Shown one piece after another: positions 1,574 to 23,212 of a stretch of 25,125 nucleotides of DNA (position 1 is the first letter of the stretch; the number at the start of each line of letters is the position of its first letter). The notes under the pieces were generated by a model. The model was not told where the DNA came from. It saw only the letters and a list, made by a program, of their open reading frames with translations, and ran no database searches. Position numbers and translations under genes: made by a program. This DNA is from Planctomycetales bacterium (lineage in GTDB: Bacteria > 4484-113), in assembly GCA_037445915.1 (NCBI GenBank), contig JBBIJQ010000026.1:1-25125 (forward strand), written 5' to 3'.

Positions 1574-2971
1574 CTATGGATTTACCGTAATCGCAAGCTT
1601 GGCTTCGTCAGCAGTCACATCGCCGTCGCCGTTAAGGTCTAAGCCCATGTGGGAGAAGTAATATTCCGTTAGGCTGAGATCTGAATAATAGGTACGCTTA
1701 ACATCGCGGAATTGCACTAGCTCAAGCTGGGTTGTTCCCGGCTGTGAAGCCGTGAACGGAACAGTGACGGCGCTGCCTTGTCCAAGAACTACTTCGTTGT
1801 TTAGCCCGAGTTGGGTGACGTTAATGTCAAAGTAATTGCCATCGGACGAACCCGCACAATAGAGCAATGTCATCCCAGAAAAGAACGTGCCAGACGGAAG
1901 ATCTACCATCCAGTCGCCCGGACTTGCGAGAATAGTGCTGCTTTTCAATATTTCAGCGCCGTTCAGGTTCGCCAGCGGCGACGCGTTTTGGTAGATGTAA
2001 ACGGTGACATATACGGTCTCGCCGACGTTATAGGCTGACTTGTCGCTTAGCAAGTAGATGCTGTCCGGCAGGGCATCCGCGAACGGTTCAAGCACGGTGT
2101 AAGAAAAAGGATATGTAACGGAGGATGTCCCTATGAAGAGAGTAAAGACACCCTCGTAATCACCAGGGCTGCCCAGCACAACTTCCGGCGCCCAGTCGGT
2201 CGACGCGTTGGGAGCCGCTCCTCCGCCGAAATCCCACGACATAGAATCAGGGCTGATGCCTTGACGGACGTTCGCCGTGAACTTAACAATTGACTCCGCC
2301 CAGCCTGATTGTGGCGCAACTCCGTTGACGGCTGGAAGGCAGACCACATTGCTTAATTCGCCGGCTGATAAATCCGCGCTTACCGGCACAACCGCAGTAT
2401 ACACAAGCGCCCCGGAAGGCAGAAATACATCCCAAGCCTTGGGGAAGCTTGAATCCCCGAATGCAACGGTTCCGATGCTGCTATAAGGTCCGCCTTCATT
2501 GGCAGACGTCATGATGTAGTACTCCGTAACTTCGCTTAAGAATCCCATTGCGATTGGCGTGATATCGCTAATCCCGACTGCGCCGTCTCCGTCGCCGTCA
2601 ACCCATGACTCGAGCGCATCGTTCCCCTGGCCGTCATCGGTGTCGGCGCCAAAGTGCATCGCTATCGGCGTTATGTCGGAGACGCCGACCGCGCCGTTAA
2701 GGTCATAGTCTCCCCGGTTCACGTAAGTCCACTGGAGCTTGTAGAAGCCGCCGATTAATTGGAGCTCTAAGTCGGCAACTTTCCCTGCTGCGCCCTGCGG
2801 AGCCGCCAACGCTAGCTTCGGCGGATTATCAGCGGCTTCACGCACAGGCGAAAGGCTTGGCCCTTCACAGCCAGACAGCGTTAAGGCGAATGAGCACAGG
2901 AGCCAAAGAAGTAGAACGGCGGGTGCGCAGCGAAGAACTTTCAATCCCGCTCTCCTTGTAATTCCCATCAT
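1574..2971 (-). CDS. Secreted lipoprotein with duplicated dockerin-like Ca-binding motif, PKD-like and cohesin-like beta-sandwich domains (~465 aa)
   Basis: Start re-set to ATG 2971 (or 2968): MMGITRR..LLLWLLCSFALTLSGC lipobox; repeats GDYDLNGAVGVSDITPIAMHF and VDGDGDGAVGISDITPIAMGF; WDFGGG PKD-like motif; C-terminal YNVGETVYVTV..VTVPFTASQPGTTQLEL. The ORF-track extension to 3424 is antisense to lysS. Confidence 0.75.
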   Translation of the reverse strand: MMGITRRAGLKVLRCAPAVLLLWLLCSFALTLSGCEGPSLSPVREAADNPPKLALAAPQGAAGKVADLELQLIGGFYKLQWTYVNRGDYDLNGAVGVSDITPIAMHFGADTDDGQGNDALESWVDGDGDGAVGISDITPIAMGFLSEVTEYYIMTSANEGGPYSSIGTVAFGDSSFPKAWDVFLPSGALVYTAVVPVSADLSAGELSNVVCLPAVNGVAPQSGWAESIVKFTANVRQGISPDSMSWDFGGGAAPNASTDWAPEVVLGSPGDYEGVFTLFIGTSSVTYPFSYTVLEPFADALPDSIYLLSDKSAYNVGETVYVTVYIYQNASPLANLNGAEILKSSTILASPGDWMVDLPSGTFFSGMTLLYCAGSSDGNYFDINVTQLGLNNEVVLGQGSAVTVPFTASQPGTTQLELVQFRDVKRTYYSDLSLTEYYFSHMGLDLNGDGDVTADEAKLAITVNP

Positions 2972-2976
2972 TACAT

Positions 2977-2985
2977 AGTTTACCA
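2977..2985 (-). promoter_or_regulatory. Extended -10 box TGGTAAACT, 5-8 nt before lipoprotein start codon
   Basis: TGnTAnnnT match; no Shine-Dalgarno between box and ATG. Confidence 0.5.
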
Positions 2986-3083
2986 CGGCGGTATAACAAG
3001 GATCGTCAAACCTTCGTGCGCTTAGAGCGCCGAACCGCATTGGGCAAATGCTGATGTCCATATCACACCTTGACATTGGCAGC

Positions 3084-3114
3084 TTGCACTTCTTGTTAGC
3101 GGGCAAGCTATAAT
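3084..3114 (+). promoter_or_regulatory. Putative sigma70 promoter of lysS
   Basis: Perfect TATAAT at 3109-3114; TTGCAC at 3084-3089 (19-nt spacer, suboptimal). Confidence 0.45.
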
Positions 3115-3143
3115 CATCTTCATCCCATTGTGGGAATAACGAT

Positions 3144-4640
3144 ATGCCTAAACTGACGCCGTATGAGGAAGAGAGGCTGCCGCAGGCGCAGCCGCCGCCG
3201 GACGACCAAAGCGGGATGCGCCGCTGGAAGCTGCGCCGCCTGAAGGAAGCCGGGCGCGACCCGTTCGCGCGGGTGCGCTTTGACAGGACGCACACCATCG
3301 CCGAACTGCTGCCCGGCTTTGACGAGAAGGCCGGCCTGAAGGTGCGCCTCGCGGGGCGCATCATGGCCAAGCGCATGCACGGCAAGGCGCTGTTCTTGGA
3401 CTTGGCCGACCAGGACGGGCGCATGCAGGCCTACGCGAACGTGGACGCGCTGGGCGCGGAGGGCTTCGCGGAACTGGAAAACGCCGACCTCGGCGACATC
3501 ATCGGCGTGGAGGGCGAGCTGTTCAGAACGCGCACGGGGCAGGAATCGGTGAAGCTCGCGGCGTGGGAGTTGCTTACGAAGTCGTTGGAGCCGCTGCCGG
3601 AGAAGTGGCACGGCCTGACCGACCAGGAACTTAAATACCGCAAGCGCTACCTTGACCTCATCGCCACGCCGGAGGCGCGCGAGCGCTTCAAGATGCGCAG
3701 CAAGATGGTCGCGAAGATGCGCAACTTCCTGGACGACCGGGGCTTCCTGGAGTTTGAAACGCCGGTGCTGGAGCCGATATGCGGTGGGGCGACCGCCGAG
3801 CCGTTCATTACGCACTGGAACGCGCTGGACAACGACTTTTACCTGCGCATCGCGACCGAGCTTCGCCTGAAGCGCCTCATCGTCGGCGGCTTTGAGCGCG
3901 TTTATGAAATCGGGCGCATCTTCCGCAACGAAGGGCTGGACACGAAGCACAACCCCGAGTTCACGATGCTTGAGCTTTACTGGGCTTATACCGACTACAA
4001 CGACATAATGCAGCTAACGCAGGACATGATCGTGCACCTCTGCGACGAATGCCTCGGCACGCGCAAGATTATGTTTGAGAACAAGGAGCTTTCGTTTGAG
4101 CCGCCGTTTGCGCGCGTGCAGTTTGAGGACTTGATGAAGCAATACGCGGGCGCGGGCGTTGCGGACATGCCCGACTTGGATGCGGCGAAAGCAGTGGCGA
4201 AGAAGCTCAACATTGAATTTGATAAGTCATACGGCTACGAAAAAGTGCTTGACCGCATCTGGTCGGAGGCGGTGGAGCCGAATTTGGTGCAGCCCACGTT
4301 CGTCATGGACTACCCGGTAGCCATTTCGCCGCTTGCCAAGCGCATTCCCGACCGGCCGCAGTTCGCCTACCGCTTTGAATTATTCGCGGCGTGCGCGGAG
4401 TTGGCAAACGCGTTTTCGGAGCTAAACGACCCGGTTGAGCAGCGCATGCGCATGGAAGCGCAGATAGCGCGCGCGACCGAAGGCTACCGCGAGCTGGACG
4501 AGAATTTCCTGGACGCGCTGGAGCACGGCATGCCACCGACAGGCGGGCTGGGCGTCGGGATTGAACGGCTGCTGATGGCGCTTTTGGGCGAGCCGAGCAT
4601 CCGCGAGGTCATCGTCTTCCCGCAGCTTCGCAAGGAATAG
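3144..4640 (+). CDS. lysS: Lysine--tRNA ligase, class II
   Basis: OB-fold AGRIMAKRMHGKALF, PLPEKWHGL, YRKRYLDL, YLRIATELRLKRL, motif 2 FRNEGLDTKHNPEFT, motif 3 GMPPTGGLGVGIERL. Confidence 0.98.
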   Translation: MPKLTPYEEERLPQAQPPPDDQSGMRRWKLRRLKEAGRDPFARVRFDRTHTIAELLPGFDEKAGLKVRLAGRIMAKRMHGKALFLDLADQDGRMQAYANVDALGAEGFAELENADLGDIIGVEGELFRTRTGQESVKLAAWELLTKSLEPLPEKWHGLTDQELKYRKRYLDLIATPEARERFKMRSKMVAKMRNFLDDRGFLEFETPVLEPICGGATAEPFITHWNALDNDFYLRIATELRLKRLIVGGFERVYEIGRIFRNEGLDTKHNPEFTMLELYWAYTDYNDIMQLTQDMIVHLCDECLGTRKIMFENKELSFEPPFARVQFEDLMKQYAGAGVADMPDLDAAKAVAKKLNIEFDKSYGYEKVLDRIWSEAVEPNLVQPTFVMDYPVAISPLAKRIPDRPQFAYRFELFAACAELANAFSELNDPVEQRMRMEAQIARATEGYRELDENFLDALEHGMPPTGGLGVGIERLLMALLGEPSIREVIVFPQLRKE

Positions 4641-6606: not shown

Positions 6607-6694
6607 GTGGGAAGTATAGCAGAGGGAACTGCTTCGTTTGACGCAATCTCCCTGCTTCAATAAAATAATGGTTCATACCATATCCGGGGGGCTG

Positions 6695-8716
6695 ATGGAC
6701 AAGTTATATATTGTGCTGCTGATAGCCGTGCTGGCGGTTCTCGCCGGCGGATTGCTCACGCTGCGCGTCCAGCAAGCCGCGCCCGGAGGCGAGAAGCTTC
6801 GTTGGGCAGGCGGCGCGCTCAGGAGGGCCGCTTTCCCCTTCGCCATCCGCGCGACCATCGCCCTGGGAGCGCTCGGCGTTCTCCTCTTCCTCTTCTTCGC
6901 ATTCATCCCCGGCTTGTCGCTGCGCCTGGCGTTCTCGGCGCTCATCGGCGTCGCAGCTTCGCTTTTTGCTGCGCACGTTTCCCTCCATGCCGGCGTCCGC
7001 GGAATCACCAATGCAGCGGCGGCTGCAACCCGCAGCCCGGCGGTGGTCGTGCGCAAGGCGATGGCGGCAGGCGCCGCCGGTGGCTTCACCGCGGCTGGAA
7101 TCGCATTGCTCGCGCTCGCGGCACTGGTCATGGTATTAGCACGCGGGGCAGAAGCCGCGGTCTTAGGCGAGATGTTGCTGCAAAACCTCGCGGGCTTCGT
7201 GCTGGGAACATGCGCAGTCGCGATAGCCTTCCGCTGCGGCGGGGGCATAGCATCGCAGGCCGCGGCCATGGCGAAAGCGTCAGTGCCAAATGATATTCAG
7301 CTTGAAAGCGACCCTGCAAAGAACCCCGCAGAGATATGCGCCATCGGATGCGAAAGCATCAGCGGCCTGGGCGGACTCGCCGCCGAATACTGCACCGTCC
7401 TTTCAGCGTCGCTGGTCGCAGCGATGATACTTGGCGTCGTGGCGCTAAAATCTTCGCTAGGCACGGCCTACCCGCTTCTAATAGTTGCAGGCGGACTCAT
7501 GGCGTCGCTGTTATCAATGCTATGGGTGTTCCGCTCATCTGCTCAAAAGACGTTGTCTGCTGCGCGCGCGGGACAGCTTGTCGCGACGGTGTTGATGCTT
7601 CTGCTCGCGCTGCTAATCACGACACTCAGCCACATCCCAACCGGCATGTTCCTCGCGGTGCTTTTCGGCGCGGCCGCAGGAGGAATCATCGCGCTGGTTG
7701 ACGATTACTACGCTTACCTCAGAGCCAAGCCCGCGGGCTCTGAAACATCCCAAGACGGCGGATGGGCATTCCTGGACGCGCTTTGGGTAGGTTCGCGGTC
7801 ATCGCTGCTTCCCGTCATCACGCTTGCCTCCGCGGCAGTAGGGGCATTCGCGGTTTGCGGCGGGTTCAACGAGCCTGCGAAAGGAATGTTCGGGCTGTCG
7901 CTTGCGGCCGTAGGCGCTGTTGCGGCGGGAGCACATAGAATCGCTTCCCTAGCTTCAGCCTGCATCCTCAAGCAGGCTGCGAGCATCGCTCCTATCGCAG
8001 GGCTTGATGAGGGCAGCATTGCCACTCTCAACACACTCCAGGAGAGCTTGCCTTGCGCCTGCCACGTGCGGGGTCATTCAGCGGGTGTCTTTGCGCTGGC
8101 AGGGCTTGGGCTTTACGCCGCATTTACCCACAGCGCGAACCTTCCCGCTTCGGACTTGAACCAGCCGCTCGTGTTTGGAGGGCTTCTCATGGGCGCGACA
8201 CTTGTGTTATGGAGCGCAGGCGGCACGATGCGGGCGACAAGGCTGGCGGCCAAGTCGCTTATCACAGAAGTTCGGCGTCAGTTCGTGGAAATACCTGGGC
8301 TTTCCGAAGGGCAGGCTGAAGGTAACTATGAGCGCTGCTCGGAGATTGCGGCGGCGCACTCTATCAGGGGGCTGGGATATGCCAGCCTTGCGTTGGTTGT
8401 GGCTGCAGTTCTGCTGGGCGGAGTATTTCGCCTGCTCAAAGTATGGCTATACGCTGGGACAAGGTCGGCCGGCGGTGGCGAGTTTGCAGCTGGGATGATC
8501 GCCGGTGCGGTGCTTCTCTCGCTAGTCATCGGCTTGATGGCGGCGGAACTGGCCGGGACGATTAGCAGCCTGCGCAAGAATGCCGGCGACACGCCTGAAG
8601 GTGCTTTCACGGCATCCCTGGGCGCGGCAATCGCAAGCGCAGCATCGCCGATGCTGCTCTTCGCTCCGATTCTCCTCGCATCCGCTGCGCTGGCGTTCGC
8701 CGGATGGCTGCGCTAA
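6695..8716 (+). CDS. Membrane-bound H+/Na+-translocating pyrophosphatase (HppA) homologue, catalytic motifs degenerate
   Basis: 673 aa, highly hydrophobic; recognisable HppA landmarks in order: FRCGGGI, DPAKNPA.I, DYY, G.FGLSLAAVG, P.VFGGLLMGA, EVRRQFVEIPGL.EG.A..NY.RC..I. Start chosen at ATG 6695 after GGGGG. Confidence 0.8.
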   Translation: MDKLYIVLLIAVLAVLAGGLLTLRVQQAAPGGEKLRWAGGALRRAAFPFAIRATIALGALGVLLFLFFAFIPGLSLRLAFSALIGVAASLFAAHVSLHAGVRGITNAAAAATRSPAVVVRKAMAAGAAGGFTAAGIALLALAALVMVLARGAEAAVLGEMLLQNLAGFVLGTCAVAIAFRCGGGIASQAAAMAKASVPNDIQLESDPAKNPAEICAIGCESISGLGGLAAEYCTVLSASLVAAMILGVVALKSSLGTAYPLLIVAGGLMASLLSMLWVFRSSAQKTLSAARAGQLVATVLMLLLALLITTLSHIPTGMFLAVLFGAAAGGIIALVDDYYAYLRAKPAGSETSQDGGWAFLDALWVGSRSSLLPVITLASAAVGAFAVCGGFNEPAKGMFGLSLAAVGAVAAGAHRIASLASACILKQAASIAPIAGLDEGSIATLNTLQESLPCACHVRGHSAGVFALAGLGLYAAFTHSANLPASDLNQPLVFGGLLMGATLVLWSAGGTMRATRLAAKSLITEVRRQFVEIPGLSEGQAEGNYERCSEIAAAHSIRGLGYASLALVVAAVLLGGVFRLLKVWLYAGTRSAGGGEFAAGMIAGAVLLSLVIGLMAAELAGTISSLRKNAGDTPEGAFTASLGAAIASAASPMLLFAPILLASAALAFAGWLR

Positions 8717-8747: not shown

Positions 8748-9788
8748 GTGAATGAAGGGAAGAAAATCCGCCTAACCGAGTACGCTTCCTGCGCAGGATG
8801 AGCCTCCAAGGTGGGTCAGGTTGACCTACGGGAGATACTCGCCGGAGTTGGCTTCTTCACGACTCCCGAAGTTTCATCAAGCATGGCGCGAGGGGATGAT
8901 GCGGGGGTCTATAGGCTGCGCGACGACCTCGCGCTAATACAGACTGTGGATGTCTTTACGCCGATTGTGGACGAGCCGCGCGACTACGGCCGCATAGCGG
9001 CAGCCAACTCGCTCTCCGACGTTTACGCGATGGGCGGCAATCCCATCACCTGCCTCGCGATAATGGCAGCGCCTGCAATGGAATTCCCAAACTGGGTAAT
9101 GAGCGAAATCCTCGCGGGCGCGAATGAAATCGCCAAGCTCGCGAGTGCGCCCATCATAGGCGGACATTCCCTGAAGCTTCGCGAACCTGCATTCGGCCTA
9201 GCCGTCACGGGCATAGCGCACCCTTCGCGCATCATCGGCACTGAAGGTGCGCAACCCGGAGACGCGCTTGTGCTTACTAAGCCGTTAGGCAGCGGCATCA
9301 TAACGACTGCCGCCAAAAGCGGAGAAGCGATTGATGCAGCGCTGAATGGCGCGATAAGTGCAATGTCGTGCCTTAACCGTATCGCCAGCGAAGCTATGCA
9401 GAACCTCACCCGCGCAGCGGCCACCGACGTCACCGGCTATGGCCTGCTCGGGCATCTCTGGCACATTCTTGAAGCATCGGGAGTGGGCGCGCGCATAAGC
9501 TTCAAAGATATACCGCCGCTGAAGGGAGCGCTGGAGTTGGCGCTCAAGTTCGTGCCCGGCGGGACTATGAAGAACTTCCAGTTCGCCTCGGCATTCGCGG
9601 ACTTTGGCTCGCTTGCCTACGAGGAAAAGATGCTCATTTGCGATGCGCAAACTTCCGGCGGCCTGCTCATTGCCTGCCCTCTCGGCGAGCTGTCAGAGCT
9701 GCTTCACGAAATCACTAGACGCGGCGAGGAAGCGTGGGTCATCGGCGAGCTTACGCAGAAAGGCGCGCCCGTTGTTACAATAAGCTGA
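8748..9788 (+). CDS. selD: Selenide, water dikinase (selenophosphate synthetase), selenocysteine-containing
   Basis: Reading from GTG 8748: MNEGKKIRLTEYASCAG-U(TGA 8799-8801)-ASKVG, the SelD active-site G(C/U)xxK motif; body has DDAGVY, QTVDVFTPIVD, AAANSLSDVYAMGG, GGHS, LTKPLG, TDVTGYGLLGH, DAQTSGGLL. Confidence 0.95.
8804..8834 (+). promoter_or_regulatory. Bacterial SECIS element
   Basis: GTGGGTCA (8811-8818)/GGT loop/TGACCTAC (8822-8829) with lower stem CTCC (8804-8807)/GGAG (8831-8834), immediately 3' of the UGA; G-starting apical loop 17 nt after UGA. Confidence 0.8.
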
Positions 9789-9848: not shown

Positions 9849-10379
9849 ATGAACGACAACGAGTTTGAGAATGGCGAAAAGAAACGCGGCAAGGTAATCA
9901 TTGAAGATAAGCGCTTTATGCGCGAAGACAGCGTGGCTGAGGAAAAGCCCAAGGCTGAAGAAGCTGCGCCCAAAAAGCCCGCGCATACACACAAGCACGA
10001 GCACAAAGCTGCCGCTGGACAGCCCGCCGAAGGCGGGCAGGAAGGCGTGAACCTTTTTGATATCGGTATTGAGGGCTTCATTGAATACAACCTCGGCATG
10101 GTCCTCCAGTTCGCGTGGGTTTACATGGGAATGGCGCCCAGCCCCTCCACCGGCCTCATCGCGCGCGACCTTGAGCGCGCGAAGCTTTGCATTGACGTGT
10201 TTGAATTTATGGCCGCGAAGATAAAGCCCATGCGCCCCAAAGAAGCGCAGGAAGAACTGACGCGCATCACCAAGGACATGAAGCTAAACTTCATCCAAAG
10301 CGCTGCCGCGCCTGAGCCTGAGACTACGCCTGCAGAAGACTCGCCGAGAATTATCACTCCCGATTCGCCCAAGAAGTAA
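9849..10379 (+). CDS. DUF1844-like domain protein
   Basis: KVIIEDKR N-terminus, then AWVYMGM.P.P.TG...RDLERAKL.ID...M pattern; stop overlaps kdsA start (TAATG). Confidence 0.75.
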   Translation: MNDNEFENGEKKRGKVIIEDKRFMREDSVAEEKPKAEEAAPKKPAHTHKHEHKAAAGQPAEGGQEGVNLFDIGIEGFIEYNLGMVLQFAWVYMGMAPSPSTGLIARDLERAKLCIDVFEFMAAKIKPMRPKEAQEELTRITKDMKLNFIQSAAAPEPETTPAEDSPRIITPDSPKK

Positions 10380-11225: not shown

Positions 11226-11502
11226 TTAGGCAGGGCTTTCGCCCGGCTCTGCTCTTCCTGGTGGCACGGACGACTCGTCTGTGCGCTTAGTTGCACAGCC
11301 CAAAGGGCTGTGATGCAACTGCCTGGAAGCTCAATAATCAACCAATGTGTACGCCGGACTCACCAGCGCGGCTGTGGATACGCGACCTAACGGTCGCGTG
11401 ATTCAATGCACAAGCTGGATGCATGTGCCACTATTCAGACTCCCAGATGGCGGGGCACATGTCCCCTCCTTACAGTGAGAGCCGCACTGAAGCGCCGCCT
11501 AC
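11226..11502. repeat. Cluster of REP-like palindromes between convergent kdsA and kbl
   Basis: Hairpins at 11226-11251, 11261-11284, 11289-11320, 11380-11399, 11407-11431, 11449-11473, 11477-11502; several start GTAG/GTGG/GTAA; two families recur at 21566-21697. Confidence 0.7.
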
Positions 11503-11526: not shown

Positions 11527-12780
11527 CTACATCCCGTACTTGGCGATGATTTCGTCCTTCTTCAAGCCGAGGATGCCGTACTTGTCGCCGATCTTCGTAA
11601 ACGCCTCAAGCGCCTTGTCCAAATGGTGTTTGTCGTGGGCGGCGGAAAGCTGCGTTCTGATGCGCGCGGCGCCGTTCGGGACCACCGGGAAGAAGAAGCC
11701 GATGACGTAGATGCCCTCGTAGAAGAGGTCGCGCGCGAAGTCCTGCGCGAGCTTGGCGTTGTAGAGCATGACTGGCACGATGGGCGTGTTGCCGGCCTTC
11801 AGGTCGAAGCCTGCCTTGGTCAGGCCCTCGCGCCAGTAGTTCGTGTTCCACTCCAGCTTGTCGCGGCGCTCGGTCGAGGCGGAGATGAGGTCGAGCACCT
11901 TGTTCGCGCCCGCGACGATTACCGGCGCGACGGAGTTGGAGAATAGGTAGGGGCGCGCCTTCTGGCGGCACATTTCCACAAGCTCCGCGCGACCGCTGAC
12001 GCAGCCGCCGGACGCGCCGCCGAGCGCCTTGCCCAGCGTCGTCGTGATGACGTCAATGCGCCCCAGCACGCCGCATGCCTCGTGCGTGCCCTTGCCGCGC
12101 TTGCCGATGAAGCCCGATGCGTGCGAGTCGTCAACCATCACCATCGCGTCGTACTTGTCGGCCAGCTCGCAAATCTCGTCAAGCTTCGCCGTGTCGCCGT
12201 CCATGGAAAACACGCCGTCGGTGATGATCATGCGCTGGCGGGCGGTCTGGAACTCCTGTAGCTTGCGCTCCAGGTGCTTCATGTCGGAATGCTTGAACGT
12301 GTCGTATTTCGCGGAGCAAAGCTTCATGCCGTCAACGATGCTCGCGTGTACCAGGCGGTCGGAGAGCATCACATCGTCGGGCGTGAGCACCGCTTCAAAC
12401 AAGCCTGCGTTGGCGTCCATGCACGACGGGAAAAGCACTGTATCCTCGGTCTCAAGGAACGAGGTGAGCTTGTTTTCCAGCGTGCGGTGGATGTCCTGCG
12501 TTCCGCAGATGAAGCGCACTGAAGACATGCCGTAGCCGCGGTCGCCCAAGCCCTCGTGCGCCGCCGCGACAACGTCAGGGTGGCTGGAGAGGCCGAGATA
12601 ATTGTTGGCGCAGAAATTGAGCACCGGCGCAGGCTTTACGCCCTTGCCCACCGGGAATTCAACTTCAATCTCCACGCCCTGCATGGAATGGATGTAGCGT
12701 TCTTCCTTGAACAAGCCCTTTTCAGAAAGGCCGCCCAGAATTTCCTGATACTGGCTTCGCGCCTTATCAGAATAAGCCAT
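11527..12780 (-). CDS. kbl: Glycine C-acetyltransferase (2-amino-3-ketobutyrate CoA ligase)
   Basis: FKEER, NFCANNYLGL, SVRFICGTQDIH, TDGVFSMDG, DDSHA, PLP lysine TLGKALGG, RPYLFSN, ARIRTQLSA; RBS AAGGAG. Confidence 0.92.
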   Translation of the reverse strand: MAYSDKARSQYQEILGGLSEKGLFKEERYIHSMQGVEIEVEFPVGKGVKPAPVLNFCANNYLGLSSHPDVVAAAHEGLGDRGYGMSSVRFICGTQDIHRTLENKLTSFLETEDTVLFPSCMDANAGLFEAVLTPDDVMLSDRLVHASIVDGMKLCSAKYDTFKHSDMKHLERKLQEFQTARQRMIITDGVFSMDGDTAKLDEICELADKYDAMVMVDDSHASGFIGKRGKGTHEACGVLGRIDVITTTLGKALGGASGGCVSGRAELVEMCRQKARPYLFSNSVAPVIVAGANKVLDLISASTERRDKLEWNTNYWREGLTKAGFDLKAGNTPIVPVMLYNAKLAQDFARDLFYEGIYVIGFFFPVVPNGAARIRTQLSAAHDKHHLDKALEAFTKIGDKYGILGLKKDEIIAKYGM

Positions 12781-12800
12781 TATGTTCTCCTTCGCCGGGG

Positions 12801-13052
12801 CTACTGCGCCTCAGGCCTGTATTCGCGCACAAGCGCCATGATTTTGCGCACCGTGTCAAAGGCTTCCGGGGTCGCCTTATCATCGGGGATTTTGATGTCG
12901 TACTTGTTCTCCAGGAAGGTCTTCAGCGAGACCATGGAGAACGAGTCTACGATGCCGCTTGAGATGAGGGGGTCGTCCAAGCCGGGCGCATCATCGTCGT
13001 CTTCAAGGTATTCGTCCTTGACATACTGAGTGATCATTTCTTCCATTGCCAT
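12801..13052 (-). CDS. Acyl carrier protein
   Basis: 83 aa, acidic, phosphopantetheine site GIVDSFSMV, LE.KY.I.IPD, FDTV..I; RBS AAGGAG. Confidence 0.9.
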   Translation of the reverse strand: MAMEEMITQYVKDEYLEDDDDAPGLDDPLISSGIVDSFSMVSLKTFLENKYDIKIPDDKATPEAFDTVRKIMALVREYRPEAQ

Positions 13053-13067
13053 GGCGGGTCTCCTTGT

Positions 13068-14786
13068 TTAATCGTCCAGGGTTGATAAATCGCCCACGGG
13101 CTCGCCGCGGTCAATCGCGCGCAACACGCGGCGCATGATTTTGCCGCTGCGCGTCTTGGGCAGGCTGTCAACGAATTCTATGTACTGCGGCATTGCCAGT
13201 GGCGACAACCGCTTACGGACAAAGTTCATGATGTTCAGTTCAAGGTCCTTGCTCGGCGCGAAGCCGGGGTTGAGCATGATGTAGGCCTTCACGACTTCCA
13301 TGTTCACCGGGTCGGGCGTGCCGATGGCTGCGGACTCAGCGACGGCCTCGTGCTCAAGAAGCGCCGACTCAACTTCAAACGGCGCGACGAGGTGGCCGCC
13401 GGTGTTGATGACGTCGTCGTCGCGGCCTTCAAACCAGAAATAGCCGTTCTCGTCAATCCGCGCGCGGTCTCCGGTGAGATACCATCCGTTTTTGAATTTC
13501 TTGGCGTAAGTCTCCGGGTTCTTCCAATACTGGCGGAACATGGACGGCCACGGCGGCTTGATGGCTAGTTTACCGGCCACATTGGGCTTAGTGATTGGCT
13601 CAAATGTAATGTCATCAAGCACGCCGGCTGTGATGCCGGGGAATGGCTTGCCCATAGAGCCGGGAAGCACTTCCATTCCGGGGAAGTTGGTCACCATTAT
13701 CGCGCCGGTTTCGGTCTGCCAGAAAGTGTCGTGGAACGGCAGCCCGTAAACCTTGTCAGACCAGATGACCGCTTCGGCGTTCAGCGGCTCGCCGACGCTT
13801 GCGAGGTGGCGCAGCGACGACAAGTCGTATTGCTTGATTATCTCCTCGCCTTCGCGCATCAACAGGCGGATTGCGGTCGGCGCTGAATACCACATGGTAA
13901 CTTTGTGGTTCTGCATCGCGCCATACCAGCGGGGTGGCACGAAGCCCACTTCCATAACGAGCTGCGTCACGCCGATTGACCATGGGCCGATGACGCCGTA
14001 GGAAATGCCGGTGACCCATCCGGGGTCGGCTGAGCACCAATATACGTCCTCAGGCTTCAAGTCCAGTACCCATTTCGTCGTTAGGTGCTGGGCGTATAGC
14101 GAGCCGTGGACATGCTGCGCGCCTTTAGGCTGGCCGGTCGTGCCGGATGTGTAATGCAGGACTGATGGAGTCTCAACCTGCGCCGGGAAGATGGGGAACT
14201 CGTCAACGCGCGGCGCTGCTTCCACATCAAAGGTCAACTCGTCAGCGAGGAGCTTCTCACCCTCGGCGGGATCAATGATTATTACGTGCTTGAGCGCGGG
14301 AAGCTCAGGGCGCGCTTTGCGAAGTTTCTTCGCAAGCTTGTGGCTCGTTACGCAGCCCACGGCATCGCAGTTACCAAGGCGCATCACAAGCGCTTCCTCG
14401 CCAAACGCAGAGAACAGAGGGACTGCGATTGCACCGAGTTTGAGGATGCCGAAGAATGCAAAGTAGAGCGAAGGCACGCGGTCAAGGAAAATAGCCACGC
14501 GGTCTCCCGGCTGCACTCCGAGGTCTTCAAGCTTCTTGGCGAATGCGTTGCTGTAAAGGCGGATTTGGTTGAAAGTGTATTTGCGCACTTCGCCGTCGTT
14601 GCCTTCCCAGATTAAGGCGACTTTGTCGCCCAGCCCGCGCTCGCAGTTGCGCTCAACGCAGTAGTAGGCGATGTTAAGCGGCTGGCCTTTTTCGTGACCG
14701 AGTTCGGCAGCCGCCACGTCCCATGTAAAGCCTTTGACGCGCTCTTCATAGGAGCCGATATTTGTCCCTTCAGCGGGGATCTTCAT
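13068..14786 (-). CDS. acsA: AMP-forming acetate--CoA ligase (AcsA type)
   Basis: YTSGTTGQPKG, ADPGWVTG, SAPTAIR, SVGEPLN, DTFWQTETG, YLTGD, GRDDD, PKTRSGKIMRR, GDLSTL; RBS GAGG. Confidence 0.9.
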   Translation of the reverse strand: MKIPAEGTNIGSYEERVKGFTWDVAAAELGHEKGQPLNIAYYCVERNCERGLGDKVALIWEGNDGEVRKYTFNQIRLYSNAFAKKLEDLGVQPGDRVAIFLDRVPSLYFAFFGILKLGAIAVPLFSAFGEEALVMRLGNCDAVGCVTSHKLAKKLRKARPELPALKHVIIIDPAEGEKLLADELTFDVEAAPRVDEFPIFPAQVETPSVLHYTSGTTGQPKGAQHVHGSLYAQHLTTKWVLDLKPEDVYWCSADPGWVTGISYGVIGPWSIGVTQLVMEVGFVPPRWYGAMQNHKVTMWYSAPTAIRLLMREGEEIIKQYDLSSLRHLASVGEPLNAEAVIWSDKVYGLPFHDTFWQTETGAIMVTNFPGMEVLPGSMGKPFPGITAGVLDDITFEPITKPNVAGKLAIKPPWPSMFRQYWKNPETYAKKFKNGWYLTGDRARIDENGYFWFEGRDDDVINTGGHLVAPFEVESALLEHEAVAESAAIGTPDPVNMEVVKAYIMLNPGFAPSKDLELNIMNFVRKRLSPLAMPQYIEFVDSLPKTRSGKIMRRVLRAIDRGEPVGDLSTLDD

Positions 14787-14826
14787 GCAAACACCTCACG
14801 AACTATTGTATTTCGCAATGCCAGCG

Positions 14827-15888
14827 TTACTCGTCCGAAGGCATCGGATTAAACACCAGCTTGGAAGCGGGCTCGCGGCGGTTGCACACCAAATCAAGCC
14901 CCTTTAAAGCGTCTTTGAACGGTATGACGTGCGTGATAACGGGCGAAGGGTCTACGAGCTGGTAGTCCAGCAGCGCTTTCACCTGGAACCAGGTCTCAAA
15001 CATCTTGCGCCCGTTTATCGCTATAAGGTTAGCGCCCTTGAACACGAGCCCTTCGGCGTAATCCACTTCAATCGGGCGTGAAGGGATTCCGAAGGCGATG
15101 AACGTGCCGGTGCGTTTTAGCATTGCAAGCCCGTCGTGTATCGCGGCATGGTTGCCGGCCATATCCAACACGACATCAACCCCGCCGTTAGTTTCTTCAA
15201 TTATTCGGCGCACGTAATCATTTTCCTTTTCAACGTTGACGGAGATATGCGCGCCCATCTTGCGCGCGATGTCCAAGTTGAAATCAATCATTCCAAGGTT
15301 GTAGATGACCGTGGCGCCGACAGCTTTCGCAATACCGCAGGCGAAGCAGGCAATCGGGCCGTCTCCAATGATGGCGACTTTCTTCAGCGAGACTTTGCCT
15401 TCCATCACGCAGTAGGTCGCGTTGCCGAAAGGCTCTTGAATTGAAGCCGTTACCAAGGAGAGGCCGGGGTCGTTCTTCCAGCACACAATCTCTGGAACGG
15501 CAACGTATTCCGCGAACACGCCGTTACGGTCAACACCAAGGATTTCCACATTTGCGCATAGGTGCATGTTGCCGGTGAGGCATTGAGCGCAATGGCCGCA
15601 GGGTATATGTGTCTCCAGCGATACAGAGTCGCCAACCTTGACGTTCTTGCAGCCATGGCCCGTCTCAACAACAGTGCCGCAGCACTCGTGCCCGAATATC
15701 ATCGGGGGCTTGATGCGCCCCTGCGCCCAAGGATCCCAGTTGTAGATATGGTGGTCGGTACCGCAGATGGATGCCGCGCGGACTTTTACTAATGCTTCGC
15801 CGGGCCCCGGCGTCGGGATATCAAGCTCGGCAAACTCCGCGCCCGGAGCGGCTTCCTTTTTGATAACGCAAAGCATCTTGGCGGACAT
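14827..15888 (-). CDS. tdh: L-threonine 3-dehydrogenase (Zn-dependent MDR)
   Basis: SICGTDHHIYNWDPWA, GHE, ETHIPCGHCAQC..G..H.C, ILGVDRNGVFAEY, EPFGNA, INGRKMFETW; same operon as kbl. Confidence 0.92.
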   Translation of the reverse strand: MSAKMLCVIKKEAAPGAEFAELDIPTPGPGEALVKVRAASICGTDHHIYNWDPWAQGRIKPPMIFGHECCGTVVETGHGCKNVKVGDSVSLETHIPCGHCAQCLTGNMHLCANVEILGVDRNGVFAEYVAVPEIVCWKNDPGLSLVTASIQEPFGNATYCVMEGKVSLKKVAIIGDGPIACFACGIAKAVGATVIYNLGMIDFNLDIARKMGAHISVNVEKENDYVRRIIEETNGGVDVVLDMAGNHAAIHDGLAMLKRTGTFIAFGIPSRPIEVDYAEGLVFKGANLIAINGRKMFETWFQVKALLDYQLVDPSPVITHVIPFKDALKGLDLVCNRREPASKLVFNPMPSDE

Positions 15889-15959
15889 AAAGAACCTCTA
15901 GCCCTTGAATTGGGTTTGCCGCCTGGGGAAGCAAAAATTAGCGGCAAGAGCAACCGTTG

Positions 15960-15988
15960 AATCTACTCCTACGGGGCTGGAATGTCAA
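15960..15988 (-). promoter_or_regulatory. sigma70 promoter of tdh-acsA-acp-kbl operon
   Basis: TTGACA (15988-15983) - 17 nt - TAGATT (15965-15960). Confidence 0.7.
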
Positions 15989-17578: not shown

Positions 17579-17938
17579 CTAGCGTGCGAGCAAAAGCGCG
17601 AGTACCGCCACAGGCGCTAAAGCTGCAAGCATCAAGAGGCCAAGGCAGCCTGATTTTACTTTAACTTGTTGCTGGCTGCTTGATTGATCCCTGTTGAGTT
17701 TCGCTTCAAGGCCATCCGAACGAGGCATGGCGTCTATGCCTTTATAGCGGTTGAGGCGCGTCTGCTCGCGTTCAAAGTGCTCCCCCTGGCCCGCCTTCAA
17801 CAGGCCGCCGGAGTACTTTTGACTAGCATCCGTCGGTTTCACAGTTTGGGGTTTCTGCCCCTCAATCATTGAGATGTCCGGCGCCCTGATAGGCCGACGA
17901 ACAACTGGGCGTTTTTGCTGCTCCTGGTTACGCTCCAC
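17579..17938 (-). CDS. Hypothetical protein with single C-terminal membrane anchor
   Basis: Hydrophilic Q/R/K-rich body, ends KSGCLGLLMLAALAPVAVLALLLAR; GGGGA upstream of GTG; TGGTATAAT promoter upstream. Confidence 0.6.
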   Translation of the reverse strand: MERNQEQQKRPVVRRPIRAPDISMIEGQKPQTVKPTDASQKYSGGLLKAGQGEHFEREQTRLNRYKGIDAMPRSDGLEAKLNRDQSSSQQQVKVKSGCLGLLMLAALAPVAVLALLLAR

Positions 17939-21697: not shown

Positions 21698-21788
21698 AAG
21701 GAGTTATTTAGTCTGAAAAGCCAGAACAGGCTATTCCGGCGCAGAAATGCGGTAGAATACCGGCGTGGGGTAATAAAGAGGAGTCTAA

Positions 21789-22490
21789 ATGGCGACGATA
21801 GACTACAGGCCGATGGACAGGGACTACATTCTCCCTGTATGCCCAAAAGTCCTGGTAAAGGGGCCGTTTGACCGCGGCGACCCGACCGGGCACTTCGGAT
21901 TCGTCAGCGATTGCCCCACCGTCAACGACGAGCTTCTGCGCACGTATGTGGAGAAATACGGCACCTGCGGCTATCTCGCCTGGGACGGCTACGCGGTCGT
22001 GGCTGCCTCGCTCTTTTTCCCGCTCAACGACCTCCCCGCGAAGCTTTGCAAAATCTACGACGTTGACGAATACCCGCGCAGGTGGTTTGACGCGCTCAAC
22101 AAGGAAAAGGGCACGATGGTCATGGGCTGCTGCATAGTCGCGCCTGATTACCGCGACCGGGGCATCGGCACAAAAGTCGTTGAGGCGTCGCTCGCGTGGA
22201 TGCGGCGCAACCGCTGGCTGCGCGCGGTGAAGCTCGGCGTGCCGTCGGAAGTTTACGGCTTCACCGACCATTTCAATTTGCCGTTTTGGGAGAAGATGGG
22301 CTTTCGCGTCTTCAGGCTTATTGACCGCAGCGAAACCGAGCCCTGGGCGAGCCGCGAGCGCGCGAAGCTCCTGCGCCTGCACGAAAGCGGGCACTTCAAC
22401 GCGCAGGGGATTGACTTCTGCGGCATCCTCAAGACGCGCGGATGGCAGGGCATCCTCGGCGTTAACGACCTAGAACAGCGCTTCGCATAG
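21789..22490 (+). CDS. GNAT family N-acetyltransferase
   Basis: Acetyl-CoA motif A VAPDYRDRGIGT, motif B FWEKMGF; RBS GAGGAG. Confidence 0.8.
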   Translation: MATIDYRPMDRDYILPVCPKVLVKGPFDRGDPTGHFGFVSDCPTVNDELLRTYVEKYGTCGYLAWDGYAVVAASLFFPLNDLPAKLCKIYDVDEYPRRWFDALNKEKGTMVMGCCIVAPDYRDRGIGTKVVEASLAWMRRNRWLRAVKLGVPSEVYGFTDHFNLPFWEKMGFRVFRLIDRSETEPWASRERAKLLRLHESGHFNAQGIDFCGILKTRGWQGILGVNDLEQRFA

Positions 22491-22507: not shown

Positions 22508-23212
22508 CTACCCCGACATGTAATCGCTGAAGGGGCGCTCTTCGGCGGTTCCGGCGGTGCAGCGGGGGATGCTCTCCACAATTCCCGGAAGGTGGCAATA
22601 CGGCACGCTCACATACAGCACGCCTTCGGGGGTGCCCGTCATCTTGCGCGCCGTCCAGTCGCCGAAGCTCACGTTCACTTCGCCCGTCACCAGTGAATAC
22701 GCAACCGCCATGTGGCAATGCGCGCCAATCATTTCGGTTTTCGGCGAGCGGCCGGTGAAGAATGCGTGCAGCGTGATGAGGCGGCACGCCTGCTCGGGGC
22801 TAACGTAAAATACCGCGACGTCGGGCTCAAGCTGCGCGCTGTCCATCGGCGCTATGACGATATGGCTCGCGAGGCCCTTGGGCGGCGGGGAGGCAGTGAC
22901 CATCATTCGGTGGAAGACGGCGTAGCTCATCGCCAGCTTCTCGCCGTGCACGAGGAACTTCTTGAGGCCTTCGCCTGCCTTGCCCTGCGGGGGGTCGCCC
23001 AAGCCGAGATGCCATGTCCCGCCGCCGCACGAGGAGTTTTCAGCGTCAAGGACGATGGTCTCGCCCTGGTGCGCCTTGTCAAGCGCGAAGCATCCCCGGC
23101 AAGCCTTGGGGCGCTTTACATCGGGCGGGTCAAACGTGTAGCTCACGGCGACGATGCTGCCTTCAAGTTTGAGAACTTCGGTTAGCGTCTTTGCATACTG
23201 CTGCCAAATCAT
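22508..23212 (-). CDS. DUF169 family protein
   Basis: LKL.G..VAV, C......A..G, SC.GG...LG, EPDV..F...PEQA.RL, C...VA....TG..NVSFGD..AR pattern; RBS GGAGG. Confidence 0.8.
   Translation of the reverse strand: MIWQQYAKTLTEVLKLEGSIVAVSYTFDPPDVKRPKACRGCFALDKAHQGETIVLDAENSSCGGGTWHLGLGDPPQGKAGEGLKKFLVHGEKLAMSYAVFHRMMVTASPPPKGLASHIVIAPMDSAQLEPDVAVFYVSPEQACRLITLHAFFTGRSPKTEMIGAHCHMAVAYSLVTGEVNVSFGDWTARKMTGTPEGVLYVSVPYCHLPGIVESIPRCTAGTAEERPFSDYMSG

Follow-up and report, generated by a model that had tools for sequence, protein, structure and literature searches.

The stretch of DNA considered here, hereafter the window, comprises 25,125 nucleotides (nt) from a Planctomycetales bacterium (assembly GCA_037445915.1, contig JBBIJQ010000026.1, positions 1 to 25,125 of the forward strand). 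It contains a unit of four genes, all on the minus strand at 11527..15888, which according to the list of open reading frames (ORFs) of the window follow the order tdh-ligase-carrier-kbl. They encode a look-alike of the Zn-dependent L-threonine 3-dehydrogenase (Tdh) of the medium-chain dehydrogenase/reductase (MDR) type, an AcsA-type AMP-forming acetate ligase, a dedicated acyl carrier protein, and a pyridoxal 5′-phosphate (PLP) enzyme of the glycine C-acetyltransferase (Kbl) family, here named Kbl* as the carrier-linked Kbl paralogue. Judged by its genes, the operon likely encodes a form of the Tdh-Kbl pathway that depends on a carrier protein, and in which an acetyl group would be shuttled on the carrier between the ligase and Kbl*. 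The genome is a 1.79-Mb assembly of 120 contigs and is 90% complete; the phylum of the window is represented throughout by 24 species genomes (G000-G023).

The genes are separated by gaps of 40 nt (tdh/ligase), 15 nt (ligase/carrier), and 20 nt (carrier/kbl), and each start is preceded at 5-7 nt by a Shine-Dalgarno-like site, namely AGAGG for tdh, GAGGTG for the ligase, AAGGAGA for the carrier, and GAAGGAGA for kbl. The layout given in the original prediction, four co-oriented genes with these gaps and a ribosome-binding site each, is thus borne out by the ORF list and the upstream sequence, and the motifs quoted there (GWVTG, SVGEP, DTFWQTE, SVRFICGTQ, RPYLFSN, and DSF) are all found in the translations.

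The ligase (13068..14786, minus strand, 572 aa) is assigned to a carrier-linked clade of AcsA-type enzymes by its match to NF003313, its pocket residues, and its position in the tree. It passes the acetate-CoA ligase equivalog NF003313 narrowly (752.7 bits against a cut-off of 729), and its closest solved relative is a 572-aa acetyl-CoA synthetase (9g79, 8.4e-164). When placed among 96 representatives of a library with 1.84 billion proteins, the full-length ligases linked to a carrier, 76 in number, make up one clade with a support of 0.997. In the numbering of E. coli Acs, residues V310, T311, V386, and W414, which we take from the Acs literature to line the acetate pocket, are retained in 75-76 of these 76 sequences, including that of the window, as had been proposed for the window ligase from its motifs, and the catalytic K609 as well as R584 are present in all 76. 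On the other hand, R526, an arginine in E. coli Acs, 9g79, and 8rpk, is replaced by leucine in 76/76 carrier-linked ligases. According to PMC10455477, R191, R526, and R584 of Acs matter for the use of coenzyme A (CoA); the state that forms the thioester is stabilised by R526, which is in contact with the adenylate phosphate, and substitution of R526 impairs CoA use. The R191 column is occupied by residues other than arginine (proline in 33/76, lysine in the window) within a loop whose alignment is uncertain and which retains a K-x-R-K motif.

The carrier (12801..13052, minus strand, 83 aa) belongs to a conserved family and bears Ser37 in the motif GIVDSFSM. It scores 20.5 bits against Pfam PF00550, just below the cut-off of 20.8, and a precomputed PF00550 match exists for many close homologues. 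No NCBIfam model is reached at its cut-off, the best being ACP_for_OlsHI (46.9 against 130). Homologues number 4636 at E<=0.001, and an alignment of 20 sequences has 38 invariant columns, including D36, S37, and F38.

The product of kbl, Kbl* (11527..12780, minus strand, 417 aa), is identified as a member of the glycine C-acetyltransferase family by TIGR01822 (571 bits against 493) and NF005394 (569.7 against 460). The serine palmitoyltransferase (SPT) models give 222.7-305.1 bits against cut-offs of 500-670, and the BioF and ALAS models also fall far short; hence, the earlier view of this PLP enzyme as Kbl-like and not SPT-like holds. Kbl* shares 55% identity with E. coli Kbl. It aligns with the solved structure of the latter (1fc4, 7.4e-140) over residues 19-404, and the stretch TLGKALGGASGG, whose lysine is presumably the PLP lysine, is identical in both. 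The Kbls linked to a carrier group together in a clade (85 tips and one mis-called ORF), separately from E. coli Kbl and the 32 canonical paralogues, with moderate support (0.81 and 0.53 in two trees). This clade has 18 clade-specific positions, among them R142, D160, and H169, each found in 100% of the 85 sequences, and Kbl* carries a C-terminal extension relative to canonical Kbl. A complex of the Kbl* dimer with the carrier was predicted with a score of 0.40 (runs 0.02, 0.42, and 0.40), against 0.01 for the best of three controls; the Kbl*-carrier runs share at least 50% of contacts, with a partner pLDDT (predicted local distance difference test) of at least 80. In the calibration, the mark was reached by 58/80 solved complexes and 2/110 mismatched pairs, and at scores <=0.60 only 7/80 solved complexes reach it, together with both passing mismatches. 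The prediction thus weakly suggests that the Kbl* dimer may bind the carrier.

With regard to the dehydrogenase (14827..15888, minus strand, 353 aa), solved-structure matches and Pfam domains (ADH_N and ADH_zinc_N) point to a Zn-dependent Tdh. It stays under the Tdh equivalog cut-offs (358.2 against 458.35 bits for TIGR00692 and 353.8 against 380 for NF003808); only five solved chains are matched at E<=1e-40, and each of them is an L-threonine 3-dehydrogenase (2d8a, 7.7e-86). Upstream of the ligase, a Zn-type dehydrogenase is encoded in the window and in two family f3 genomes, and four genomes of the window's family have in this slot an epimerase-fold gene that matches the solved Tdh of the short-chain dehydrogenase/reductase (SDR) type at 1e-105 to 2e-130 (7cgv, 2.1e-130). 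Both types even stand beside the ligase within one genus, SDR in G021 (L130, G021:C84) and Zn in G022 (L017, G022:C8). The G021 enzyme is 91% identical to the SDR-type Tdh of a different family, and a recent transfer or a binning error is a possible source of the difference. Across the phylum, the SDR type occurs in 18/24 genomes, the Zn type in 4/24, and both together in 0/24, the two genomes with neither type being 62% and 85% complete; Tdh (22/24) and Kbl (21/24) are nearly universal. That one slot can be filled by either of two unrelated Tdh types is good evidence for Tdh activity as part of the unit, and it strengthens the link of the operon to threonine that had been read from the window alone.

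The four-gene unit also alternates with a plain tdh-kbl pair. In two other members of the window's family (G002 and G008, 93% and 90% complete), the window's own purM...kdsA neighbourhood recurs as purM-lipoprotein-SDR Tdh-Kbl...kdsA, without ligase or carrier, and no ligase homologue was detected genome-wide at E<=1e-60. In these genomes, Kbl falls beyond the carrier-linked clade, and its signature residues are for the most part canonical. The versions with two and with four genes are therefore interchangeable at one locus, which argues that they do the same job at the level of the pathway.

Outside the window, the carrier gene was confirmed at a minimum of 548 loci in one-genome-per-species contigs. 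Synteny was counted in 80 loci from species genomes, 3 of which duplicate loci of the phylum. Kbl lies immediately downstream of the carrier in 79/80 and the ligase immediately upstream in 74/80, and both hold in 73/80. Such conservation makes the arrangement more than chance; the search for an acsA-acp-kbl neighbourhood across genomes that the original prediction had called for thus found a conserved gene order. The ligases of these loci share 59-77% identity with that of the window and the Kbls 66-81%, and carriers of different phylum-level groups are 63-76% identical, with an invariant DSF serine. By deposited labels, which were left unchecked, about a dozen phylum-level groups are involved, including Zixibacteria, Delongbacteria, Riflebacteria, Aminicenantes/Acidobacteriota, several Bacteroidota, Ignavibacteria, KSB1, Elusimicrobia, Caldisericales, Eisenbacteria, Calditrichaceae, and others; Draconibacterium and Prolixibacteraceae are likewise among the labels of cassette loci. 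Within the window's phylum, the carrier gene is present in 16/24 genomes; at the 15 other phylum loci, kbl follows the carrier in 15/15 and the ligase precedes it in 11/15. The carrier-type ligase occurs in 12/24 phylum genomes, all 12 of which have the carrier, and in 0/8 of the genomes without one. In the window genome, Kbl*, the ligase, and the Zn-type Tdh are each the sole member of their family, and elsewhere a second Kbl-type gene lies within the locus in 34/80 cases, four of which were scored and gave 575-619 bits on the Kbl equivalogs.

Other genes accompany the trio in particular lineages. Outside the phylum, the ligase is immediately preceded by an ORF with an N-terminal AcpS-type motif in at least 49 of the 65 loci with a full ligase, and 10/10 candidates examined reach the Pfam cut-off of PF01648. 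In the phylum, acpS adjoins the cassette at none of the loci, and the window genome has its one AcpS gene elsewhere. Clustering of 2633 neighbouring ORFs yielded nothing universal besides the trio; acpS was overlooked there and was found by a targeted look. Lineage-specific neighbours include Pat-like, thioredoxin-like, DUF5916, MFS, Fe-ADH, UvrA, and MntP genes. The Pat-like gene (about 890 aa, with an ADP-forming Acs domain and a GNAT acetyltransferase) is found close to the cassette at 15 loci of Aminicenantes and Bacteroidales (L054, L065, L066, L072, and L101 among them) and hints, by analogy with Acs, that the ligase may be regulated by lysine acetylation. At L037 and L043, the cassette has a sodium:solute symporter of the ActP-containing family as its neighbour. 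A lone carrier-Kbl* pair is located beside ffh in the four genomes of genus g9 (L028-L031, e.g., G016:C1:1539091-1540588), which also have a plain SDR-Tdh-Kbl pair elsewhere in the genome.

Fused proteins of the 'Rosetta stone' kind were also considered. Among nine longer carrier-containing proteins, four were inspected (P0121, P0122, P0124, and P0129). The apparent fusions of the ligase or Kbl to the carrier in P0121, P0122, and P0129 were rejected since their interdomain stretches are out of frame and of low complexity, apparently reflecting frame errors in GC-rich contigs, while P0124 (AcpS and carrier, three members) could not be judged; a carrier-Kbl fusion ORF at L038 is merely an upstream extension in another frame. 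Public gene calls such as P0121, P0122, and P0129 would mislead domain-fusion analyses.

These features, one operon-like unit and a conserved trio, fit the acetyl-carrier route put forward in the original prediction. The carrier probably bears acetyl, and the ligase and Kbl* probably use it instead of CoA. In such a scheme, the Zn-type dehydrogenase would interconvert L-threonine and 2-amino-3-ketobutyrate, Kbl* would reversibly cleave the latter with the thiol of the holo-carrier to glycine and acetyl-S-carrier, and the ligase would interconvert acetyl-S-carrier, AMP, and pyrophosphate (PPi) with acetate, ATP, and holo-carrier. The net reaction would be threonine + NAD+ + AMP + PPi ⇌ glycine + acetate + NADH + ATP. 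A private carrier pool would decouple the acetyl-thioester/thiol ratio from the acetyl-CoA/CoA ratio. By rough textbook energetics, the net chain lies near equilibrium, and a separate carrier pool would help it in either direction.

As for the direction, of the two named in the original prediction, ATP-driven synthesis of threonine from acetate and glycine and threonine breakdown with ATP recovery, we lean to the latter because of the equivalence to plain tdh-kbl at the same locus, the canonical Kbl located with the cassette, and the presence of threonine synthase (ThrC) in other hosts. A canonical Kbl beside the cassette (34/80) would give one intermediate two outlets, and synthesis would then produce an ATP-wasting loop. 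For the window organism, the favoured direction would be the splitting of imported threonine into glycine and acetate, with ATP recovered; the shuttle and the catabolic direction taken together are put forward as a tentative proposal. The membrane pyrophosphatases (5/5 genomes, with a divergent second copy in the window) and the failure to find a family-I soluble enzyme in G000 and G006 are also counted on the side of breakdown. An AMP-forming Acs that runs towards ATP is documented in Syntrophus aciditrophicus (SaAcs1; PMC13404658).

A number of points weigh against this proposal of an acetyl-carrier shuttle in threonine breakdown. The basic K-x-R-K loop and R584 remain in the carrier-linked ligases, so that CoA binding may be retained, and Leu526 is ruled out as a unique mark of the clade, as it is also seen in representatives outside it. 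In genus g9, the carrier-type ligase is absent, and the only Acs of its four genomes is the canonical long form with SGHRIG and an arginine at 526. The weakness of the predicted Kbl*-carrier complex also counts on this side. True AckA passes its cut-off in 5/24 phylum genomes, all of which possess the carrier and the ligase, and ADP-forming Acs is found in 0/24; neither enzyme shows a pattern complementary to the ligase across the 24 genomes, and the occurrence of AckA in cassette genomes only means that the ligase is no simple substitute for acetate kinase. In addition, every characterised pair of adenylating enzyme and carrier known to us loads in the ATP-consuming direction, and the ActP-family symporter (two loci) and Pat-like genes (15 loci) fit acetate uptake and activation. 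Lastly, threonine breakdown works with CoA elsewhere, and the case for a carrier in it is an energetic one.

The same carrier-dependent module might instead be run in synthesis, with acetate loaded onto the carrier by means of ATP, condensed with glycine by Kbl*, and reduced to L-threonine by Tdh, a reading that we regard as rather unlikely. In its strongest form, which is doubtful as well, a ThrC-free route would operate as a ratchet and be the sole threonine source of the phylum, the ligase keeping the carrier almost fully acetylated and so pushing the Kbl condensation, which would otherwise be unfavourable, while Tdh pulls. ThrC is above the cut-off in 0/24 phylum genomes against 14/14 control genomes, homoserine dehydrogenase was found in 0/5 phylum genomes, one of them a single contig (4.1 Mb), Tdh and Kbl are nearly universal there, and glycine can be provided by GlyA (5/5; GcvT likewise 5/5). 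However, the eight carrier-less phylum genomes equally lack ThrC, and the phylum looks broadly amino-acid auxotrophic from its gene content (IlvC over cut-off in 0/5, TrpB in 1/5). Among 25 cassette hosts of other phyla, ThrC exceeds the cut-off in 13, three more score 160.6-166.3 against 167.1, and nine are without a match near the cut-off, the last group being in favour of synthesis. The question raised in the original prediction, whether hosts lack thrB/thrC, thus has a mixed answer: the cassette is no general replacement for ThrC, and a synthetic role within the phylum is neither proven nor excluded. Synthesis would also agree with the ATP-dependent loading typical of known ligase/carrier pairs and with the symporter and Pat-like neighbours of some loci. 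A published example of such loading is AasR/AcpR (PMC9386255), and formation of threonine from glycine and acetyl-CoA by Tdh and Kbl in vitro is credited to Marcus and Dekker (1993) in PMC3439479. The same article quotes a half-life of <1 to 10 minutes for 2-amino-3-ketobutyrate, which decarboxylates fast, and an intermediate so short-lived speaks against synthesis. So do the canonical Kbl in or beside 34/80 cassettes, through which acetate would be cycled futilely to acetyl-CoA, and the sister genera in which the corresponding locus has neither ligase nor carrier.

Two further explanations assign the carrier or the product a different role. The enzymes could be ordinary CoA enzymes, a normal acetyl-CoA synthetase and a normal Kbl, with the carrier serving in regulation, bearing a different acyl group, or having its partner elsewhere. 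The ligase and Kbl* do pass NCBI equivalog cut-offs, the ligase retains R584 and the basic loop, genus g9 has carrier-Kbl* without the carrier-type ligase, and the window carrier falls just short on the Pfam PP-binding model (20.5 against 20.8). This explanation is nevertheless improbable given the ligase-carrier-Kbl order with short gaps in 73/80 loci of distant phyla, the gain or loss of ligase, carrier, and Kbl* type together within one family at one locus, the clades separate from canonical paralogues (with R526L in the ligase and R142, D160, and H169 in Kbl*), the belonging of acpS to the cassette in other phyla, and neighbourhoods that lack any further conserved enzyme for the activation or use of acyl groups. 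By analogy, the unit could also be a starter module for another product, such as aminoacetone, 1-amino-2-propanol, pyrazines, or a short sphingoid-like amino-lipid precursor. A ligase, a dedicated carrier, and an alpha-oxoamine synthase together make up the AasR/AcpR/SPT architecture (PMC9386255), and aminoacetone arises from 2-amino-3-ketobutyrate by spontaneous decarboxylation, as stated in PMC3439479. That Kbl* passes the Kbl models and stays far under the SPT, BioF, and ALAS cut-offs argues otherwise, as do the acetate-sized ligase pocket in 75-76/76, the housekeeping surroundings, and the tie of either Tdh type to the cassette, and no tailoring, lipid, or export genes are conserved among the neighbours. 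The amino-alcohol or amino-acid analogue offered as an option in the original prediction is further disfavoured since the cassette and plain tdh-kbl replace each other at one locus, and a product of this kind is highly improbable.

Under the carrier-linked Tdh-Kbl pathway preferred here, three known systems invite comparison. The E. coli kbl-tdh operon unites the same two enzyme families, but the window operon has an AcsA-type ligase and a dedicated carrier between tdh and kbl, and Kbl* falls in a separate clade, its thiol partner being probably the carrier rather than CoA. In the AasR/AcpR/SPT system of Caulobacter, E. coli B, and Sphingomonas, the ligase acylates only a specialised carrier, SPT prefers the acyl-carrier, and the genes co-occur (PMC9386255). 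The window likewise encodes an adenylating ligase, a dedicated carrier, and an alpha-oxoamine synthase together. Its acyl group is apparently acetate and not a long fatty acid, its synthase is of the Kbl type, and its ligase is of the AcsA type; lipid synthesis is served there, in contrast to central amino-acid metabolism with Tdh in the window. Like SaAcs1 and other AMP-forming Acs enzymes, the window ligase passes NF003313 and has the acetate pocket, the Lys609 equivalent, and R584, but it adjoins a carrier and its clade has leucine for R526; the loop positions that reportedly bias SaAcs1 have no confident mapping onto the shorter AcsA-type loop of the window ligase.

As to expression signals, the single promoter assigned to the operon, TTGACA-17-TAGATT, is present at 15988..15960 on the minus strand (15960..15988), 71 nt upstream of the tdh start, and agrees with the consensus at 10/12 positions. 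A promoter scan of the region gave two such sites against 1.9 expected from shuffles; hence, this match alone is no better than chance and is a consensus match, not functional evidence. No riboswitch or leader matched Rfam at the gathering score in the window, eight phylum loci, or ten loci of other phyla. Downstream of the kbl stop (11380-11470, minus strand), a pair of inverted repeats, GACATGTGCC...GGCACATGC and ACGCGACC-gtta-GGTCGCGT, was noted by eye at a distance of 60-150 nt from the stop; both are unlisted by the terminator scan. In the RNA-library run X18, contigs of relatives cover parts of all four genes, which is not proof of transcription. These 85 contigs are mostly <95% alike to the window (likeness classes 1/3/20/61). 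One of them spans the carrier/ligase junction (12924-13640) and another the ligase/tdh junction (14666-14895); a single transcript is not demonstrable from contigs.

The operon is surrounded by housekeeping genes, namely mfd, lysS, a recX-like gene, a divergent membrane pyrophosphatase, selD, kdsA, purM, and alaS. Membrane pyrophosphatase occurs in 5/5 phylum genomes. The divergent paralogue (6638-8716, plus strand), 3 kb from the operon, scores 226.5 against 546 on NCBIfam and 202.7 bits on PF03030, and a canonical membrane pyrophosphatase (817 bits) is encoded on another contig of the window genome. A family-I soluble pyrophosphatase was not found in the window genome; among the five genomes, it went undetected in G000 and G006 and is present in three. 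Glycine reductase B (GRDB) was found in 0/5 phylum genomes but also in 0/14 controls and is thus uninformative. The nearby selD (8811-9788, plus strand; TIGR00476, 311.4 bits) indicates that the window organism uses selenium. Conserved in the loci of relatives are a 176-aa ORF between selD and kdsA (9849-10379, plus strand) and a 119-aa ORF after purM (17579-17938, minus strand), while ORFs at 1574-3424, 21708-22394, and 22508-23212, all on the minus strand, had no NCBIfam match at E<=1e-8.

No description of the cassette was found in the literature, supplementary files lying outside the search, and it is apparently widely conserved yet undescribed. What is new here comprises the exchange of the cassette for plain tdh-kbl at one locus, the interchange of two Tdh types, the R526L signature, the ligase-less variant of genus g9, and the mixed thrC outcome. 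Since the three proteins are annotated as a housekeeping acetyl-CoA synthetase, an acyl carrier protein, and a glycine C-acetyltransferase, the metabolic reconstructions of hundreds of uncultured anaerobes are probably miswired at this point. If the proposal is true, the AasR/AcpR idea would be extended from lipids to C2 metabolism, and the organisms would possess a new threonine route or else a new step that conserves ATP at the substrate level. It would be, to our knowledge, the first case in which steps of central amino-acid and acetate metabolism are carried out on a private carrier instead of CoA. Since one locus carries the pathway in nature with either two or four genes, it provides a clean system for comparison.

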